Virus record (IMG/VR): IMGVR_UViG_3300032167_000010
Strand: one strand, 5' to 3'
DNA from: a virus
Taxonomy: Duplodnaviria > Heunggongvirae > Uroviricota > Caudoviricetes
Length of the DNA stretch: 64,000 bases
In this document: piece after piece, positions 3,001 through 42,224 of the stretch
How the letters are laid out: each line of letters begins with the position of its first letter
How positions within the stretch are numbered: the stretch's first letter is position 1
Notes under the pieces: model-generated
Told to the model about the DNA's origin: nothing
Seen by the model: the letters and a program-made list of their open reading frames with translations, nothing else
Databases searched by the model: none
Made by a program: the position numbers and the translations under genes

Positions 3001-6000
3001 CTATGGAGTTCCATAACTGTGTAATATTTATTCAAGAAACTGACCCTGACCTATCAACTCACAGAGAGTTTGCTGACACCGACTGGCATTTTTATGCTAT
3101 TGGTAATATTGGTGACTCTAAGAAAACAGATAACACTCGTCTTACAGACCCTAATGATAGATATGAATGCTGTGTTGAAATTATGGACGTAGAACTTCCG
3201 CTATCAGATTTCCCAGTAGATACAATGATAGATGCAATGGGATACAAAGAGGATGAAACTACTCACGAAAGAACTTATATTTGGGCAAAAGACGAAAATT
3301 TAGATAAATTGTATGAATTGGAAGGTGAATTCGTAAAAACTGAAGATACTGAAGTCATACGAAATAAAGCTTACTATACTTATAATGCGGCTACAGACAC
3401 GTACAAGTGCGTTGCTTATCCAAGTAAAAATAATTTAATTAATTTATATGAATTACGTGGCGATTATGTGCTTACAACAGATATAAAGGTAGACCTAACT
3501 AAAAAATATTATATTGATATTCTTGAACACGACGACTTTAGTGAGGATTTTACTTATGGTTGGCGTTATATTTCAGATGATGAAGACCCAGATGTAGTAA
3601 ATACCTGCAAACAAGCTTGGATTGATTTCTATAGATTTGTTACTACTTCAACTGATGAAGAGTTTAAAGCAAACTTGAAAAATTATTTTGTTATTGATTC
3701 TGCTTTATATTATTATTTATTTACTTTAAGATATTGCATGGTAGATAACCGCGCAAAAAATACCTTCTGGCACTATGGTAAAGCTGCTGATGGAACTCAC
3801 AAATGGGACCTTTGCTGGGACTATGATAACGATACTTCACTAGGGTTAAATAACTATGGTAAACAAGTGTATAGATATGGTTTGGAAGATACAGATGTAG
3901 ACGCCGTTGGTGAAGAAGTATTTAGAGAGATGGACAGCACATTTTTCTGCAAAGTGCGTGACTGTTTCCGAGATGAGTTAAAAACTATGTATAATACACT
4001 AGAGTCTCAAAATGCTTGGCATGCTGAAAGCTTTATTAAAGCTTGTGATGATTGGCAAAATGAATTCCCAGAAGAGCTATGGAGACTTGATATTGATAGA
4101 AAGTATATTAGAACATACACTGGATCATTTATAAATGGAAAAGGTGCTGCACAATTCCTTGTTAATATGTCTAATGGTAAAATGAAGTACCACCGTAGAC
4201 AGTGGGAAAGAAGCCAAGAACAGTACATGGCATCTAAATATCAAACATCGACTGCTGGGGAAGACAGCTCAGTACTTAGATGTTCTGTGCCGACAGGAGA
4301 CTTAGCTGTTCAGCCTAATTACAGACTTAAACTTACACCTTATGCGTATATATATTTAAACGTAAAATATGGTACTAATAGTCCAATTCAAGTTAGAGCT
4401 GTTCCAAATGAAGAATTTGAAATTCCATTTACTGGCACTGGTGCTGATATTATTGGTATATATAGTTCATCGTTAATACAAGACTTCGGTGATTTATCAA
4501 CATGTTATGCAACTACAGCTGATACGGCTAAGGCATCTAGAATTAGAAAACTCACTTTAGGTAATGACACTGCTGGATATATTAACCCTGGTTTCACAAC
4601 CCTGACAACCGGAGCTAACCCACTATTAGAAGAATTAAATGTAGAGAATGTAACAGGATTAACGCGATCTTTAGACTTACGTGAACTTATAAATCTTAAA
4701 AGAGTTTATGCTTTTGGCACGAATATTCCTGGAGCTTTATTTGCAGATGGTGGCAAACTAGAATATGTAGAACTTCCTAATGTAACAACAATAAATTTAA
4801 GAAATTTAAGTTATTTAGGTAATGATGGACTTGTACTAGAAAGTTATGACGATGTCGTAGACCTCGTTGTTGAGAACTGTCCTTTAATTAATAAAATTGA
4901 CTTACTTGATAATTGTGTTAATCTTAAAAGACTTAGATTAACTGACATTAACTTCGGTGATATTGAGTATGATGATTTTGCAGAAAAGTTTTTTGGACTC
5001 GGTGGTTTATCTTCTTCAGGTGCTGACCTTGCTAATGCTTATATATCAGGTACATGTCACATAAACAGTCTTACTGGTGAGCAGTACAGTAATTTAAATA
5101 CAAGGTATCCAGAGCTCGATATTGGGTTTGGCACACTAACATCGAAAGTTACGTTTAAATACTTAAATTCTGATGGCAGTGTTGGACAAGAGCTACATAC
5201 TGCTACTGTTGTAAGTAACAATTCTATACTTAATAGTTGTCCAGACCCAGAGCTTACTGTGCCTACATGGCCAGAAAATGATGCGTTTAAGTATGTACAT
5301 GTCGGTTGGTCAAGTACTAAACAAATTAGTAAGGGTGTAAATGACCACGAAGAGGACTATAAAGAATACTTAGAGGAAGATGCTTTACTAAACATAGCAG
5401 GTGATCGCGTATTATACCCAGTATTTAAAGCAGATAGAAAAAGCTATACTGTTTGGTTTACAAATCCTACAGCCAGTGAAGGGACATCTGACTATTTGTT
5501 AAAAACATTTACAATTCCTTATGGTAGTAATGTTAACTACTACACACCATATAATAATCTTGATGAATATTTAGCGGCAGGAATGCCTGTACCTAGTAAA
5601 CTAGATTCAAATGATCCTAGTCTATATGCTTTTACTGGTTGGTACCCTGAATCAACTGTAATACTTGGTGAAACAACCTATAAAGCCCAATTTACTTTTT
5701 TAGATGAAAAGTGGTATGAGCTTAAGAATAGTGAGCTATTTAATCCAAAATATAGTATTTCAGCAGGAACTATGACATTTGACGCATATATGAATACAAA
5801 TAATATAGCAGTTAAGGTTCCCGACACAATATCTTCAAATGGAGTTGATTGTAAAGTAGTTGGCCTTGGATTTTATTACAACACAACTGATATAAAATAT
5901 GAGCATACAGACCTAGAGTTTGTCAGATTACCGAGTCACTTGAAAGAAATATTTGCAAATGGTTTTAAAAACTGTAGCAGTTTAGCTGAAATTGAATTAC

Positions 6001-6809
6001 CAGAATCAGTACAACGTATTGGTAGAAGTGCTTTCCAAGGCTGTAATAAGTTAAAAACAGTACATATTCCGGCGAACGTACAAAATATAAGTGATGCAGC
6101 TTTTGCTGATTGCTTGAGATTGACAAGGTTCTCCGTAGATAGTGCTAATAAAAACTTTATTGGTAATGAAAATTATTTGGTAGATACTAAAAATCGTAAA
6201 TTTTTACAGGGTATTACTGGAGAAATTCCAGCAGACTACACTTTAAGTAGTTTAGGACAAAACTGTTTCTCAAACACTGGAATTGAGGCAGTTAATGTTC
6301 CAGAAGGTATTACTACTATTGGTTCAAATGCTTTTAGTCGTTGCTCTTATTTATGTGAGGTAACGTTACCAAGTACACTTACATCAATTGGTGCTACTTG
6401 CTTCAGCTGGTGTGGTAGTTTAGAGAGCATAACGTTGCCTGAGAGTTTAGAAGAACTGCCAACTTATGCATTTAATGAGTGCGCTTTGCGTGAAATTACA
6501 ATACCGACAGCGGTTGGAGTTGTTAGGGATAGAGCTTTTGGGTACATGCCAAGCTTACAAAAAGTAGTTTTCAATGTGGGACTGGATGGTGACGGTAATA
6601 TAAAAATACCACAAATTCACAAACAAGCATTTTTATCTTCTGGCACGGCGGCTAATCACGTAAAATTCTACGTGCCTTGGTCTAAAACTCAACACGAACA
6701 AAAATTCGAGGGTTTTGATAAAGAAGGTAATGCTTTAGATCCATTCTTTGGCGCTGTTGGTGTTACTTATGACGATTTTGTGTTTAATTACGTAGAGGAG
6801 GTAGAATAA
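3..6809 (+). CDS. Very large virion/tail-associated protein (5'-truncated): coiled coil, poly-Gly hinge, beta-rich domains, CotH-kinase-like segment, C-terminal BspA LRRs
   Basis: Frame is open from the window edge (first ATG at 90). Contains GGGGGGGGS, DNRAKN..WDYDND and LPSTLTSIG-type repeats. Confidence 0.75.
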   Translation: MRQEILEAATGLTSAIEALEKRFIGEDGEMGDGKESVVGSLQKQIAALETDTNSKFADVQAETNNISTEMQNLMSYTSDNFNPEVEGSFANTLIKNISSTNDALQSEINTNKGYIKSLQGDITSAHNQAASAQTAVLDIQASVTDLSKDLQSLSEETAGEFTEINEIIANNKSIAEADIAEVNKTIETLDQHITDTNKSIEVQANRIDTLIALPDGSTTADAELIDIRNGYSGEIYTSAGAAVRAVGNDIKALRDSLSQYIDTQAIDGLHYDLTGEIDQQRPYTLYLTANKEVIPESGVQIISGAGGGGGGGGSVSSLKISYITTSPVITTVNDTTKLLFTFSGTDSSGDIVQEASATWKVNNVVVAYGIVKDGGNEFDITKHLSVGTNKVFLLVTDDNGNTVTKTWTVEQKELLISSAFNDKITYASGEEIVFTYTPEGAVDKTAKFKLDGIELPSSTLTADISGIPRQYRIPAQEHGSHLLEVYLEAEINGSTITSNCITKDILVYNADSKLPIIGTSVHNFNIKQYSTVNILYTVYDPKSEMPIVEIEVDGVNVSTVEIKANPEYNNTPTGVYSYTGVEAGRHTIKIICVNQIKTVYVDVEKLDITIAPVTAGLAFDFNPVGRNNNDSANRLWSYNDVHMTVSDNFDWINGGYRVEDGEPCFCIKAGSTATIDYKLFADDAKKYGKEFKLIFKTKNVANPDSIFLSCIDNTTDRDHIGIEMGVHNANIYGQNGSLELAYSEEDLIEFEFNISSDTEKVPMVMGYEDGVPSRPMVYDNNYNFKQNTAKDITIGSPDCDVYIYRFKVYNNSLTNIDILNNFIADARTAEEMVDRYNRNQIYDENHKLTPEVLAEKCPWLRVYKLSAPHFTNNKSDKVSNTKIQQIYKNGDPVKDNWVCYNAQHSGQGTSSNDYGAAGRNLDFIMNKSNSYFEFSDGSTARTITLTRTSVPVAYLNAKVNIASSNNLTNAMLANRYNKFNPYRRPFIAREGVNTDFIKDTMEFHNCVIFIQETDPDLSTHREFADTDWHFYAIGNIGDSKKTDNTRLTDPNDRYECCVEIMDVELPLSDFPVDTMIDAMGYKEDETTHERTYIWAKDENLDKLYELEGEFVKTEDTEVIRNKAYYTYNAATDTYKCVAYPSKNNLINLYELRGDYVLTTDIKVDLTKKYYIDILEHDDFSEDFTYGWRYISDDEDPDVVNTCKQAWIDFYRFVTTSTDEEFKANLKNYFVIDSALYYYLFTLRYCMVDNRAKNTFWHYGKAADGTHKWDLCWDYDNDTSLGLNNYGKQVYRYGLEDTDVDAVGEEVFREMDSTFFCKVRDCFRDELKTMYNTLESQNAWHAESFIKACDDWQNEFPEELWRLDIDRKYIRTYTGSFINGKGAAQFLVNMSNGKMKYHRRQWERSQEQYMASKYQTSTAGEDSSVLRCSVPTGDLAVQPNYRLKLTPYAYIYLNVKYGTNSPIQVRAVPNEEFEIPFTGTGADIIGIYSSSLIQDFGDLSTCYATTADTAKASRIRKLTLGNDTAGYINPGFTTLTTGANPLLEELNVENVTGLTRSLDLRELINLKRVYAFGTNIPGALFADGGKLEYVELPNVTTINLRNLSYLGNDGLVLESYDDVVDLVVENCPLINKIDLLDNCVNLKRLRLTDINFGDIEYDDFAEKFFGLGGLSSSGADLANAYISGTCHINSLTGEQYSNLNTRYPELDIGFGTLTSKVTFKYLNSDGSVGQELHTATVVSNNSILNSCPDPELTVPTWPENDAFKYVHVGWSSTKQISKGVNDHEEDYKEYLEEDALLNIAGDRVLYPVFKADRKSYTVWFTNPTASEGTSDYLLKTFTIPYGSNVNYYTPYNNLDEYLAAGMPVPSKLDSNDPSLYAFTGWYPESTVILGETTYKAQFTFLDEKWYELKNSELFNPKYSISAGTMTFDAYMNTNNIAVKVPDTISSNGVDCKVVGLGFYYNTTDIKYEHTDLEFVRLPSHLKEIFANGFKNCSSLAEIELPESVQRIGRSAFQGCNKLKTVHIPANVQNISDAAFADCLRLTRFSVDSANKNFIGNENYLVDTKNRKFLQGITGEIPADYTLSSLGQNCFSNTGIEAVNVPEGITTIGSNAFSRCSYLCEVTLPSTLTSIGATCFSWCGSLESITLPESLEELPTYAFNECALREITIPTAVGVVRDRAFGYMPSLQKVVFNVGLDGDGNIKIPQIHKQAFLSSGTAANHVKFYVPWSKTQHEQKFEGFDKEGNALDPFFGAVGVTYDDFVFNYVEEVE

Positions 6810-32608: not shown

Positions 32609-32722
32609 AGAGCCAATGCTTATTTCTTTAGCCTTTTAAGCCGTGTGTCGTAGGTTCGAATCCTACCGTCAGCCTTCGGGTGGCGTAGCTCAGCGGTAGA
32701 GCAACGTAAATATAGCTTGGCC
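32609..32722 (+). ncRNA. Bulged-helix ncRNA copy 2 carrying a circularly permuted tRNA-Lys(UUU)-like domain (YrlA-like)
   Basis: Order is anticodon loop CTTTTAA, T arm, acceptor 3' strand, TTCG loop, acceptor 5' strand, D arm; closed by GCCAA/TTGGC. Confidence 0.85.
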
Positions 32723-32728
32723 AAAAAT

Positions 32729-32816
32729 CGGGGTGTGCTGAAACTGGCGAGACAGGGTGGACTTAAAATCCACTACATTAGAAACGTTGGTGGTTCGAAT
32801 CCACTCACCCCGACCA
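32729..32816 (+). tRNA. trnL: tRNA-Leu(TAA)
   Basis: Cloverleaf, GTGGA-CTTAAAA-TCCAC, long variable arm, CCA. Confidence 0.92.
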
Positions 32817-35825: not shown

Positions 35826-35959
35826 GCGCCTGTAGCTCAGTTGGCAGAGCACGTGACTTGTTTGAGTAGCATAAGTAATGCGATATTATGTGAGTTCAAA
35901 TCTTACCTCAAGCACCATTAATCACGGTGTCCCGAGTTCGAATCTCGGCAGGCGCACCA
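35826..35959 (+). tRNA. trnK: tRNA-Lys(TTT) interrupted at 34/35 by a 58-nt mini-tRNA (35860-35917)
   Basis: Exons of 34 nt and 42 nt give 76 nt with CGTGA-CTT|TTAA-TCACG. Confidence 0.9.
35860..35917 (+). ncRNA. Anticodon-arm-less mini-tRNA nested in tRNA-Lys
   Basis: GTTTGAG/CTCAAGC stem, D arm GCAT-AAGTA-ATGC, T arm GTGAG-TTCAAAT-CTTAC, ACCA. Confidence 0.88.
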
Positions 35960-36883: not shown

Positions 36884-37000
36884 ATGTCAGTGGCGGAAAA
36901 ATCCTGCAGACCAAAGACAGTAGGTGGATAGACGTAACCCTGTTAAGGGTGAAGAGTCTTGCAAGCTCTTATAAAGGTTCAAATCCTTTCTGACATACCA
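36884..37000 (+). ncRNA. Atypical type-II tRNA-like RNA with D-loop insertion and 6-nt anticodon loop
   Basis: ATGTCAG/CTGACAT-ACCA, T arm AAAGG-TTCAAAT-CCTTT, ACCC-TGTTAA-GGGT. Confidence 0.7.
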
Positions 37001-38012: not shown

Positions 38013-38087
38013 GGGGAATGTAGTGTAAAGGTAGCACCTCAGTTTGTGGCACTGATAGTTAGAGTTCGATCCTCTACGTTCCCACCA
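38013..38087 (+). tRNA. trnH: tRNA-His(GTG) with encoded G-1 and A73
   Basis: TCAGT-TTGTGGC-ACTGA; 3' end CGTTCCC-A-CCA. Confidence 0.9.
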
Positions 38088-38937: not shown

Positions 38938-39031
38938 GGAGGGGTACTCAAGTTGGTGAAGAGGACGCACTGCTAACGCGTTAGGGCGGTGATGAGCCGT
39001 CGCGAGAGTTCGAGTCTCTCCCCCTCCGCCA
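38938..39031 (+). tRNA. trnS: tRNA-Ser(GCT)
   Basis: ACGCA-CTGCTAA-CGCGT, long variable arm, GCCA. Confidence 0.92.
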
Positions 39032-39066
39032 ATTACTATATATTAAAATTTATTTTGGGGCTATTA

Positions 39067-39378
39067 ATGTATACTATAATTTATAAAGGTAAGTCAATCT
39101 CTTACAACGAAAATAATATTCATATAAAAAATTCATATAAAGTTAAAAATAGCGCCGAAATGGAAGAAGCTTTAAGATATGTTGTAGCCAGAGCTGCTAA
39201 ACGCGGAATTACCTATAAACGCAGTATGGCTAGTTGGATTAGAGAATGGAAAACACATAATTTTTTATGTGGTATGAAATACAAAGTAGCTCAAACTTCT
39301 TCAGTAGACCTTAATGAGAATGAGAGTTTATTTAGACGTTTAAGTTATTTTATATTAGCTCTATTTTATAGAGGCTAA
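39067..39378 (+). CDS. Hypothetical protein (start moved to the ATG downstream of tRNA-Ser)
   Basis: MYTIIYKG..., 103 aa; the longer ORF call overlaps the tRNA. Confidence 0.6.
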   Translation: MYTIIYKGKSISYNENNIHIKNSYKVKNSAEMEEALRYVVARAAKRGITYKRSMASWIREWKTHNFLCGMKYKVAQTSSVDLNENESLFRRLSYFILALFYRG

Positions 39379-39385
39379 ACCTTAC

Positions 39386-39462
39386 GGGCCCATATATCAG
39401 CTGGCTAGATGGTTTCCCTTGCAAGGAAAAGGTCGTCGGTTCGAATCCGACTGGGTCCACCA
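39386..39462 (+). tRNA. trnA: tRNA-Ala(TGC)
   Basis: G3:U70 pair, TTTCC-CTTGCAA-GGAAA, ACCA. Confidence 0.93.
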
Positions 39463-39587
39463 CTAGTAGATAAGTAACAAATATCAGCACTACAACAAGC
39501 CTACGTAGGTTAGTATAGCGTATTAATCTATGTATGAAATTAAATGCTAGATGTGTAGCGAGTGCAAGACTTTATTGTACGTTTTAT

Positions 39588-39670
39588 GGGGGTGTGGTGA
39601 AATTGGCAGACACGCCAGACTTAGGATCTGGTGCGTAAGCGTGCAGGTTCAACTCCTGTCACCCCCACCA
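39588..39670 (+). tRNA. trnL: tRNA-Leu(TAG)
   Basis: CCAGA-CTTAGGA-TCTGG, ACCA. Confidence 0.93.
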
Positions 39671-39679
39671 AAATAATAT

Positions 39680-39754
39680 GGTCCTTTAGTATATCGGTTA
39701 GTATAGCGGACTGTCACTTCGCAGAGAGGAGTTCAACTCTCCTAAGGACCGCCA
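39680..39754 (+). tRNA. trnD: tRNA-Asp(GTC)
   Basis: GCGGA-CTGTCAC-TTCGC, GCCA. Confidence 0.92.
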
Positions 39755-39918
39755 ATAAACACAATATAACGAAGAATATTGAGGTTAATGTATTCTAAGG
39801 TAACTGATAGGGGTAACCCACCAAAGAGCTAATAGGATTTTTCTAATGCTGAAGTTACATAGGTATTAGACTTTGTTGACCTAACTCTACCTAAGGTCAT
39901 TAGTATTGTGTTATATTT

Positions 39919-39993
39919 TGGGGAGTCGCCAAGCGGTAAGGCCCTGGATTCTGACTCCAGTACTCGTAGGTTCGAATCCTGCTTCCCCAGCCA
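39919..39993 (+). tRNA. trnQ: tRNA-Gln(CTG)
   Basis: CTGGA-TTCTGAC-TCCAG, GCCA. Confidence 0.93.
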
Positions 39994-40054
39994 TAGTATG
40001 AGGTTTCGTGGGAAGTGCCCCGAGTAAAACTAGCAACAAATTACCTCACTTTAT

Positions 40055-40131
40055 GCCCAGTTGGAGAAGAGGCTTAACTCACCACCCTTTCACGGTGGCA
40101 TTCGCGTGTTCGAATCACGTACTGGGTACCA
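40055..40131 (+). tRNA. trnE: tRNA-Glu(TTC)
   Basis: CCACC-CTTTCAC-GGTGG, ACCA. Confidence 0.92.
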
Positions 40132-40208
40132 GGAAGTTGTTGGTTGTATAATACTTTAAACCTTCACGGCTTGACCTACGCCGTACAGTAAGTAGGTTAT
40201 AAACAGAT

Positions 40209-40283
40209 TGGTAGGTAGCCTAGCGGATAGGCAGCAGACTGTTAATCTGCCTTAGGTGGGTTCAACTCCCTCCCTACCAGCCA
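40209..40283 (+). tRNA. trnN: tRNA-Asn(GTT)
   Basis: GCAGA-CTGTTAA-TCTGC, GCCA. Confidence 0.9.
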
Positions 40284-40344
40284 CTAAATTAAAACTTATA
40301 TCTCTAAGACAATAAAATATTTTATATAAAGGAGATTGTGTATT

Positions 40345-40566
40345 ATGTTAAAACACAAATATCTATTCTTAGAGATCAGTGCAAATGATGATCAAGTATT
40401 GTCAAAAAGAATCCTTAAATCAAGAGAATCAGGTATGAGATTAATGGAAAAAGAACTAACTAGTCTTGATGCTGAAGTAAGAGAGTTGATTTATAGAGAT
40501 GCTAGAAAACACTTGCAAGAATTTATTTGCACTAATGGATTAGTATTCATTATAAATAGGATCTAA
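40345..40566 (+). CDS. Hypothetical protein
   Basis: AAGGAG RBS before the ATG at 40345; 73 aa. Confidence 0.55.
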   Translation: MLKHKYLFLEISANDDQVLSKRILKSRESGMRLMEKELTSLDAEVRELIYRDARKHLQEFICTNGLVFIINRI

Positions 40567-40580
40567 TCCAATCTCTATAT

Positions 40581-40642
40581 TATCAGTTAGTGTACGGAGC
40601 ACTCCAATGGCAGAGTAAGTTCAATTCTTACAATGATAACCA
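40581..40642 (+). ncRNA. Free-standing anticodon-arm-less mini-tRNA
   Basis: TATCAGT/AATGATA-ACCA, D arm GTGT-ACGGA-GCAC, T arm GTAAG-TTCAATT-CTTAC. Confidence 0.7.
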
Positions 40643-40771
40643 AGCGCTTATTTGAGATAGTCACTAGGACAATAAGAACTGTTGCATAAAGACTATTATG
40701 GTGAACAGTGGTGTAAGCTAAGACAGAGACTTACATAGGTGAGTACCAGATAATCAAATCTCACCTTACCT

Positions 40772-40846
40772 GGCCTCATGGTCAAGCGGTTAAGACGCCG
40801 CCCTCTCACGGCGGAATCAGGAGTTCGATTCTCCTTGGGGCTACCA
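40772..40846 (+). tRNA. trnE: tRNA-Glu(CTC)
   Basis: CCGCC-CTCTCAC-GGCGG, ACCA. Confidence 0.92.
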
Positions 40847-40878
40847 TAAAAACAGTAAATAATTTAAATATATAAATT

Positions 40879-40935
40879 AGAGCCTGAACTTATTTCTGAG
40901 GATAAAAATAAATATGGATTTAACTTAGTCAGGCC
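40879..40935 (+). ncRNA. Bulged-helix ncRNA family, copy 3 (57 nt)
   Basis: AGAGCCTG-A-ACT-TATTTCT ... AGT-CAGGCC. Confidence 0.7.
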
Positions 40936-40951
40936 ATTATAAAAATAACTT

Positions 40952-41027
40952 AGAGCTCATACTTATTTCTATTGAAGATACATATACTCCTGGACGTATG
41001 TGCCAGGCACTAAAGATTAGTTGAGCC
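40952..41027 (+). ncRNA. Bulged-helix ncRNA family, copy 4 (76 nt)
   Basis: AGAGCTCA-T-ACT-TATTTCT ... AGT-TGAGCC. Confidence 0.7.
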
Positions 41028-41047
41028 TGTTATTTTTAATTCAATAT

Positions 41048-41123
41048 TGCAGAGTAGAGAAGTGGTCATCTCGCCGTCCTCATAAGTCGGAAATCATTGG
41101 TTCGAATCCAATCTTTGCACCCA
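41048..41123 (+). tRNA. trnM: tRNA-Met(CAT), initiator-like D arm, subtype uncertain
   Basis: CCGTC-CTCATAA-GTCGG, T arm, CCA. Confidence 0.82.
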
Positions 41124-41127
41124 TTAT

Positions 41128-41322
41128 GCTTCAGTAGCTCAACTGGCAGAGCAGCTGACTTCGTCGATTAGTTTAATTGGGAAAACAACCGAATCCCAGG
41201 TAAAAGACAACCTTTGATAACAATTACGATCAAATTGTTTAGGTTAAGATAAACAAGTTCAAATCTTGTATCGGCGTCCAGTAATCAGCAGGTTGATGGT
41301 TCAATTCCGTTCTGAAGCTCCA
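41128..41322 (+). tRNA. trnT: tRNA-Thr(TGT) interrupted at 34/35 by a 119-nt tRNA-like RNA (41162-41280)
   Basis: Exons of 34 nt and 42 nt give 76 nt with GCTGA-CTT|GTAA-TCAGC; acceptor GCTTCAG/CTGAAGC-TCCA. Confidence 0.9.
41162..41280 (+). ncRNA. tRNA-like RNA nested in tRNA-Thr
   Basis: CGTCGAT/ATCGGCG-TCCA, D arm GTTT..AAAC, T arm ACAAG-TTCAAAT-CTTGT. Confidence 0.87.
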
Positions 41323-41324
41323 CT

Positions 41325-41366
41325 AAAAAGAAAGTTATTCATTTTTTGGGTAGCTTTCTTTTTTTA
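41325..41366 (+). terminator. Terminator closing the tRNA island
   Basis: AAAAAGAAAGTTA/TAGCTTTCTTTTT stem with T tract. Confidence 0.65.
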
Positions 41367-41410
41367 TTATTTTTATTGTATTATATAATAATAAATTTTA
41401 GGAGTATTAA

Positions 41411-41635
41411 ATGAAAAATTATAACAGTTTTATTATATTTTCAATAGTTTGCAGATTGTTAGCTATTATAGGCGTTCTTGCTTTTGTAGCTTTTATGGTA
41501 GTTTCTACAAGTAATCTTAAATGCTTGTGGTTATTATTTTTACTTTTTGCTGTTGAGTGGGTACCTGTTTATGAAGTCAAATCAAAAAACTCTGAAGATA
41601 ATTCAGAAAATAAAGGAGTTATTATAAATGATTAA
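41411..41635 (+). CDS. Small membrane protein
   Basis: Two hydrophobic segments; AGGAG RBS. Confidence 0.65.
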   Translation: MKNYNSFIIFSIVCRLLAIIGVLAFVAFMVVSTSNLKCLWLLFLLFAVEWVPVYEVKSKNSEDNSENKGVIIND

Positions 41636-42224
41636 TGTTAAAAGATTAAGATGTTTTATTGGCTGGTTAGCAATGTTGCTTCCTTGGATTGTGGTTATCT
41701 TATCACTAGCTTTTGGTTATAGTTTTCCTGAATCTATTTCAGCTACCTATTACCGTGATGAGTGTATTGTGCCATTTATGATTATTTTGGGATCGGCTTC
41801 AATTTTACTTATGTATTATGATGGCTATGATAAAACTGATGATATCTTGAATACTGCTGCTGGTGTCTTAGGTTTATGTATTTGTTTTTTCCCATGTGAT
41901 GCTGGTGGTACTTTTAGACTCAGTACAGAACTTAATAGCACTTTACATATGATTTCTGCAGTATTATTTTTTATTATATTATCTTATATATCCATTTTCC
42001 AATTTACAAAAACATCTGGAAATATGACAAAACAGAAAAAGACACGTAATATTATCTACAGAGTCTGCGGTTGTGGTATGGTAGCATCATTTTTAATTTT
42101 ATTAATTCCAGGATTTTCGATTAAAATCTGGTTAACAGAAGCTATCGCTTTACTTTTCTTCGGAATATCGTGGTTAACTAAGTCTGATGTTTATAAGTGG
42201 TTAGCAGCTGACTCGAAGGAGTAA
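41628..42224 (+). CDS. Multi-pass membrane protein (DUF998-like)
   Basis: About 6 hydrophobic helices; SISATYY and LHMISAVLFF motifs. Confidence 0.65.
   Translation: MINVKRLRCFIGWLAMLLPWIVVILSLAFGYSFPESISATYYRDECIVPFMIILGSASILLMYYDGYDKTDDILNTAAGVLGLCICFFPCDAGGTFRLSTELNSTLHMISAVLFFIILSYISIFQFTKTSGNMTKQKKTRNIIYRVCGCGMVASFLILLIPGFSIKIWLTEAIALLFFGISWLTKSDVYKWLAADSKE

Follow-up and report, generated by a model that had tools for sequence, protein, structure and literature searches.

The 62-nt sequence at positions 40581-40642 of the window (the whole 64,000-nucleotide stretch of caudoviral DNA under analysis, IMG/VR record IMGVR_UViG_3300032167_000010) is probably a shortened allele of a conserved, free-standing gene for a non-decoding, tRNA-shaped RNA, found in a narrow clade of giant gut phages. 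A preliminary description had presented it as a free mini-tRNA devoid of anticodon arm, and the architecture reported there is present, with a D stem of 4 bp, a D loop of 5 nt, no anticodon arm and a terminal ACCA.

Read from its 5′ end, and entirely on the + strand, the element consists of the 5′ strand of the acceptor stem, TATCAGT (40581-40587), a TA spacer, a D arm GTGT-ACGGA-GCAC with GG in its loop (40590-40602, with stem strands at 40590-40593 and 40599-40602), a linker of 12 nt, TCCAATGGCAGA, that replaces the anticodon arm (40603-40614), a T arm GTAAG-TTCAATT-CTTAC (40615-40631), the 3′ strand of the acceptor stem, AATGATA (40632-40638), and a discriminator A followed by an encoded CCA (40639-40642). 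Acceptor stem, TTCRANN T arm and discriminator with CCA occur at the spacing of a tRNA, and the element is directly preceded by a leader, ...CTCTATAT (40567-40580, + strand), with T at -1, which is of the ...ATAT type typical of the tRNAs of this region and is kept in the orthologues. The two acceptor strands pair at 6/7 positions, with a G6.A67 mismatch, versus 7/7 pairs in every true tRNA of the island; the same mismatch occurs in two of the longer relatives described below, L163 and L164. Neither ARAGORN nor the Rfam tRNA model RF00005 (E ≤ 1) made a call on the 62-nt form; its minimum-energy fold (-9.3 kcal/mol) differs from the proposed mini-cloverleaf (-5.0 kcal/mol), with a z-score of -0.38, which is not significant, and D and T arms each account for about 0.38-0.39 of the ensemble.

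Regarding its setting, the element lies in a tRNA island of 9 kb with 25 tRNAs, all on the + strand according to ARAGORN, where a tRNA-Lys gene (35826-35959) and a tRNA-Thr gene (41128-41322) are each split by a tRNA-shaped insert, and where a scan for T arms followed by NCCA also recovered a free element of 117 nt (36884-37000). The best public DNA matches to the stretch come from animal faecal metagenomes; megablast of 39000-42000 against GenBank phages returned no match and no close relative. Between 32500 and 41400, 24 of the 28 tRNA-type genes have T at -1, and in many of them a leader ending in ATAT or TTAT sits directly 5′ of the mature end. No promoter or terminator was found between the element and its neighbours, nor is any such signal prominent around it; the next terminator-like hairpin is at 41325-41363, 3′ of tRNA-Thr. 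As for expression, six public RNA runs contained 4% of the sampled words, and the two that were mapped cover only the conserved tRNA-Glu gene at 40772-40846, with a signal from many organisms that speaks neither for nor against expression. Among the other genes of the island, tRNA-His (38013-38087) has an encoded G at -1 opposite an A73 discriminator, and not C73, and no D arm in the island comes nearer to that of the 62-nt element than its own, GTGT AAAGGTA GCAC.

Both strands of the window were scanned for a 5-bp stem closed by a TTCRANN loop and followed, after 7 nt, by NCCA. Each of the 30 sites found lies on the + strand between 32.6 and 41.3 kb, and they correspond to every tRNA of the island, the two inserts, the 117-nt element and the 62-nt element; a first-order Markov model predicts 0.155 such sites per window by chance and 0.01 for the + strand of the island. 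On sequence grounds, 40581-40642 is confirmed as a real tRNA-shaped, non-decoding RNA gene.

The relatives of the element were found through the gene upstream of it, ORF73 (40345-40566, + strand), which encodes a conserved protein of 73 aa, has a good Shine-Dalgarno sequence and counts 19 homologues with 66-100% identity; it matches no Pfam or PHROG family, and the identical protein is encoded on contigs of up to 444 kb. Contigs were sought for 9 of the 19 homologues, one of which had no DNA, and all members of the family were reached in this manner, from short contigs of ENA, Logan and JGI; a search of IMG/VR for related loci with ORF73 returned no relative. In the closer subfamily (loci L163, L164, L165/166, L171, L175, L176, L177 and L178), an element of 95-97 nt occupies the position of the 62-nt one, and the gap between the ORF73 stop codon and the tRNA-shaped RNA, 14 nt in the window, is 14-16 nt in 9/9 family members. 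The 3′ neighbour instead varies, up to the case of L175 where a tRNA-Glu begins 4 nt past the CCA; the element has therefore no host tRNA around it, in agreement with its earlier description as free-standing. Some distant homologues of ORF73 have a true tRNA-Asp downstream instead, and those at L170 and L172 are followed by no tRNA-type structure. Two distant phage loci carry two homologues of ORF73 each (L167:2349-3222; L170:202-3222), and 2 kb downstream of the pair in L170 lies a gene with a weak match to the TROVE (Ro60-like) Pfam family (5244-6222). Exact-pattern scans gave zero matches, both for the 5′ part of the element in IMG/VR and for its 3′ part in JGI metagenome contigs and GTDB genomes, and a full-text literature search returned no paper on this RNA family or on free mini-tRNAs in phages.

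Eight distinct long-form sequences were recovered at the orthologous position, with the same ends as the window element. Their layout comprises a 7-bp acceptor stem, a short D arm with a GG loop, a central arm, a variable region of 4 nt, a T arm and ACCA; the additional 33-35 nt are a second copy of the D arm and its linker. In L164, for example, GTGT-ACGGA-GCAC-TCCAATGGCAG is followed by TTTA and then by GTGT-AAGCAAAATA-GCAC-TCCAATGGTAG. By direct alignment, the two units are alignable above shuffled controls (p ≤ 0.001) in every long form; the duplication, being short and having an indel, was missed by Tandem Repeats Finder. Since the linker is nearly palindromic, one copy pairs with the other around the hairpin of the second D arm, producing a cloverleaf with a long central arm, and RNAalifold yields the same cloverleaf unprompted.

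Over the eight long forms, 93.5% of the pair cells hold standard pairs, versus 37-51% when the partners are slid by 1-3 columns. D arm and T arm are 100% paired across the family, and the acceptor stem is paired 7/7 in six orthologues, as in TATCGAT/ATTGATA. Changes on both sides of a pair occur twice: the closing pair of the T stem passes from G-C to U-A in six orthologues, so that six of the nine family sequences have a TTAAG...CTTAA T stem and not GTAAG...CTTAC, and one U-A of the central helix passes to C-G. All nine sequences have the same D-loop ACGG and the same T loop, which points to a preserved elbow, and ACCA is encoded in eight of the nine, with ACTA in L177; the elbow signature and the CCA end stressed in the preliminary description are indeed kept. 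The long forms gave no RF00005 match at E ≤ 5 and no ARAGORN call, and the loop of the central arm is variable and of 9-10 nt, so that the long form is non-decoding as well. The possibility that it is a decoding tRNA with an insert was considered and discarded, since no loop has the U33-type geometry of an anticodon and no tRNA finder made a call. The structure is thus kept through sequence change at an orthologous position, in few sequences from close relatives; the covariation is suggestive but not strong, as it draws on eight sequences of near relatives and on two pairs with full compensation. Judged by these alignments, the conserved, clade-restricted family of tRNA-shaped RNAs behind ORF73 appears real.

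Compared with the 95-nt forms, the window copy lacks exactly one unit of 33 nt and is otherwise identical to L163/L164; the linker at 40603-40614 is the surviving copy of the duplicated unit and contains the deletion junction, and in the long form it supplies one strand of the central helix. Run X7, from another study, contains the long form, in which 19 extra letters join position 40611 back to 40598, and the flank of its contig has a single difference in 173 nt (172/173 identical, about 0.6% divergence); an independent Logan contig of run X1 has the short form with no differences over 40200-40801. The repeats involved, of about 13-15 nt, are shorter than assembly k-mers, so that a short form created by assembly collapse is unlikely. 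The deletion was seen only in the window lineage, and, since a nearly identical flank still carries the long form, the arm-less architecture appears to have arisen very recently, when recombination or slippage between direct repeats removed one unit. The short allele may resemble the ancestor that preceded the duplication, given that the long form arose by duplicating an internal unit; the deletion is too recent to bear a trace of selection on the short allele. The flanking ATCTC...GAGAT was also considered as the remnant of a host anticodon stem, and this was rejected because the 3′ flank differs in L163/L164, L175 and L177.

The preliminary description further held that the element is the free paralogue of the tRNA-Lys insert, and this was not borne out. 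A covariance model built from the long forms (R1) assigned 62.5 bits (E 2.6e-12) to the window copy; when the island was scored with filters off, this was followed by tRNA-His with 32.2 bits, the Lys insert with 24.6, and tRNA-Met, -Asp, -Gly, -Glu and -Trp with 22-23. The near-identical T arm that had been noticed stands, as 15/17 bases match, the best T-arm match in the window, but only 7/21 comparable positions match elsewhere, no more than for any tRNA; in overall identity to the element, the Lys insert ties with tRNA-Asp and the Thr insert. The motif GTRAG-TTCAAWT-CTTAC with ACCA is generic: 98 of its 112 exact matches in IMG/VR are canonical tRNAs. Neither about 1.08 Mb of related loci nor five related phage records, of which four have a completeness of 95% or more, contained an R1-type element nested in a tRNA, and the window element itself is not enclosed by the anticodon-loop halves of a host tRNA, its 5′ flank being the ORF73 stop codon and the leader. 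The comparison relies on R1 scores and on position-wise identity, the nested inserts being too diverse in MAFFT to build a reciprocal model. Given the deletion origin, the generic T arm and the R1 ranks, no specific kinship is supported, and the likeness to the Lys insert seems to be a generic tRNA likeness joined to a coincidental deletion. The Lys insert has 58 nt, lacks a central arm and folds cleanly; it shows that processing is possible without such an arm, provided that tRNA-Lys is to function.

Several inserts of this kind were encountered in related loci. Those in tRNA-Leu(UAA) at L049:12623-12777, L047:13027-13180 and L046:4108-4296 are placed right after the CTT of the anticodon loop and share with the Lys insert of the window the acceptor start GTTTGAG/GTTTGAA and the GTGAG T stem; their lengths are 67, 68 and about 102 nt, respectively, versus 58 nt for the latter, and their central hairpins differ in length. 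From these likenesses, a single insert family seems to occupy different host tRNAs, with a variable middle. At L076:1548-1604 (also in L104, L110 and L135) there is an arm-less mini-tRNA of 57 nt, CACGAAA...TTTCGTG-ACCA, with D arm GCTT-AAGAA-AAGC; its host reads as tRNA-Ile(UAU), with the insertion apparently after position 32 and not 34/35. The 71-nt insert at L005:17169-17316 has the D arm GTGT AACGGAA GCAC and a T loop, TTCAATT, like that of the free element; R1 scored it at only 21.7 bits. Finally, at L164:764-903 the Rfam tRNA model spans 140 nt (42.7 bits), corresponding to a tRNA gene with an insert of about 65 nt that does not have the T arm with CCA by which the tRNA-shaped inserts are recognised.

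Between the element and tRNA-Glu(CTC), a block of 129 nt (40643-40771) has a mean column identity of 89% among the window, L165, L171 and L176, above that of the neighbouring ORF. It folds into four hairpins and has no Rfam match; of its six compensated pairs, four belong to the last hairpin (GGTGAG..CTCACC changed to GGATAT..ATATCC). The block is absent from L163/L164, L175 and L177, and is therefore a module separate from the element; it is a candidate for an undescribed structured RNA.

In the favoured reading, that of a shortened allele of a conserved family, an internal tandem duplication of D arm and linker would have created the central arm, and recombination or slippage between the repeat units would then have removed one 33-nt unit in the window lineage, leaving acceptor stem, D arm, 12-nt linker, T arm and ACCA. 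The RNA would be transcribed within the tRNA operon; an RNase P cut at 40580/40581 would free its 5′ end, and also end the ORF73 message, and trimming to the encoded CCA would form the 3′ end. The product may then accumulate as a small tRNA mimic and engage some tRNA-binding factor through its elbow and CCA, a role that we infer purely from its shape. The short allele would probably keep the processing signals, with any role that depends on the central arm lost or altered.

This reading has to be weighed against others. It is possible, if doubtful, that the family RNA is functional and that the deletion inactivated the window copy, which would then be a young pseudogene: the central arm seems important, since all eight long forms retain it with compensatory changes; the loss is very recent, the fold is weak and the acceptor stem has its mismatch. 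Against this, the copy retains an intact acceptor, D arm, T arm, leader and CCA, the Lys insert uses the same minimal architecture where processing is required, and the mismatch is found in L163/L164 too, which are long forms. An RNA serving only as punctuation in cis, whereby RNase P ends the ORF73 message and splits off the downstream tRNAs while the RNA thereby set free is itself functionless, is unlikely. The constant distance from the ORF73 stop codon next to a variable 3′ neighbour, the real tRNA-Asp behind some distant homologues and the loss of the central arm in the window, which would be harmless, speak in its favour, and the constant position behind ORF73 would fit such a purely cis-acting signal equally well. 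A compensated central arm and an invariant D-loop ACGG, however, exceed the needs of a bare RNase P minihelix, and the homologues of L170 and L172 do without any tRNA-type structure downstream; because the central arm is kept by compensatory change, a mimic acting in trans is ranked above pure punctuation.

A reading in which the 62-nt form is active as a minimal tRNA mimic and makes up, with the anticodon-loop inserts, one class of tRNA-shaped modules (acceptor, short D arm, T arm and CCA) appears quite unlikely; such modules would gain and lose central arms by duplication and deletion and could live free in tRNA operons or nested in anticodons, the free copies being a reservoir for new inserts. 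The original proposal, of an autonomous mobile mini-tRNA, paralogous to the Lys insert and a free source of anticodon-loop inserts, is very improbable: the shared minimal layout, the best T-arm match, the frequency of tRNA-shaped inserts in different host tRNAs among relatives and the similar D arm of the L005 insert can be cited for it, whereas the layout is the product of a recent deletion, the sequence kinship does not extend beyond the generic T arm and no nested family member occurs in the loci and phage records searched. As for a chance likeness, or the decayed remains of an ordinary tRNA with no selected structure, the silence of the tRNA finders and the insignificant z-score would agree with it; the expected number of sites for the island strand, the conserved orthologues, the excess of paired cells and the compensatory changes make it scarcely credible.

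In terms of meaning, the deletion origin removes one support for a free-living twin of the tRNA-Lys intron, and what emerges in its place is an undescribed, clade-restricted RNA family tied to a small conserved gene, with a central arm made from a duplicated D arm. The pair of long and short alleles in nearly identical phages amounts to a natural experiment on how much of the tRNA shape is needed for processing and for the role of these non-decoding phage RNAs, a question that dates back to the discovery of the T4 species 1 and 2 RNAs.

Among the known systems, acceptor/T-arm minihelices are model substrates of RNase P, of the CCA-adding enzyme and of some aminoacyl-tRNA synthetases. The short allele approximates a minihelix with a small D arm and an encoded CCA; the minihelices are laboratory constructs, whereas here the form is a natural allele, known from its sequence. 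Large phages pair their tRNAs with RNA-repair enzymes, and sometimes with Ro/TROVE proteins that have tRNA-like partners (PMC7824862). Bacterial and phage Y RNAs of the YrlA type (RF02553) resemble the element in that a non-coding RNA from a large phage carries a module similar to a tRNA; the element differs in lacking a Ro-binding stem and in ending in an open CCA where those RNAs have a closed helix, and RF02553 gave no match at the 40581-40642 locus. A weak YrlA-like match occurs elsewhere in the island, at 32626-32729.

The anticodon-loop inserts resemble the element in having an acceptor stem, a short D arm, a T arm and NCCA around a variable centre, with lengths from 58 to about 120 nt; they include those of tRNA-Lys and tRNA-Thr in the window and that of the Lak megaphages, whose tRNA-Thr(TGT) contains an intron that "may itself encode a tRNA" (Devoto et al. 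2019, PMC6784885). However, these inserts are nested in a host tRNA, while the present element is free-standing, has unrelated flanks and revealed no specific kinship with them.

Of the named systems, those nearest to the element are the stable RNAs of T4 known as species 1 and species 2 (rnaC and rnaD). Their genes are likewise free-standing, encode small non-decoding RNAs and share the strand of the tRNAs in a phage tRNA operon, and they are transcribed together with these tRNAs and with an interspersed ORF, segB (PMC2330249). T4 rnaC, like the present family, ends in a T arm, CCGGG-TTCGAAT-CCCGG, and a 7-nt acceptor strand. The T4 RNAs differ in that they have no sequence similarity to the family, measure 119-139 nt, have no encoded CCA and contain elaborate, unrelated interiors, whereas the present RNAs have 95-97 nt (62 nt here), an encoded ACCA and a central arm derived from a duplicated D arm. 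In conclusion, the element sits inside a tRNA operon and on the same strand as the tRNAs, has ends of tRNA type and is unable to decode, and by these traits it appears to belong with the long-known non-decoding RNAs of phage tRNA operons, as a member of a family that is itself undescribed and narrow, and that seems to have been caught here as a fresh deletion allele.
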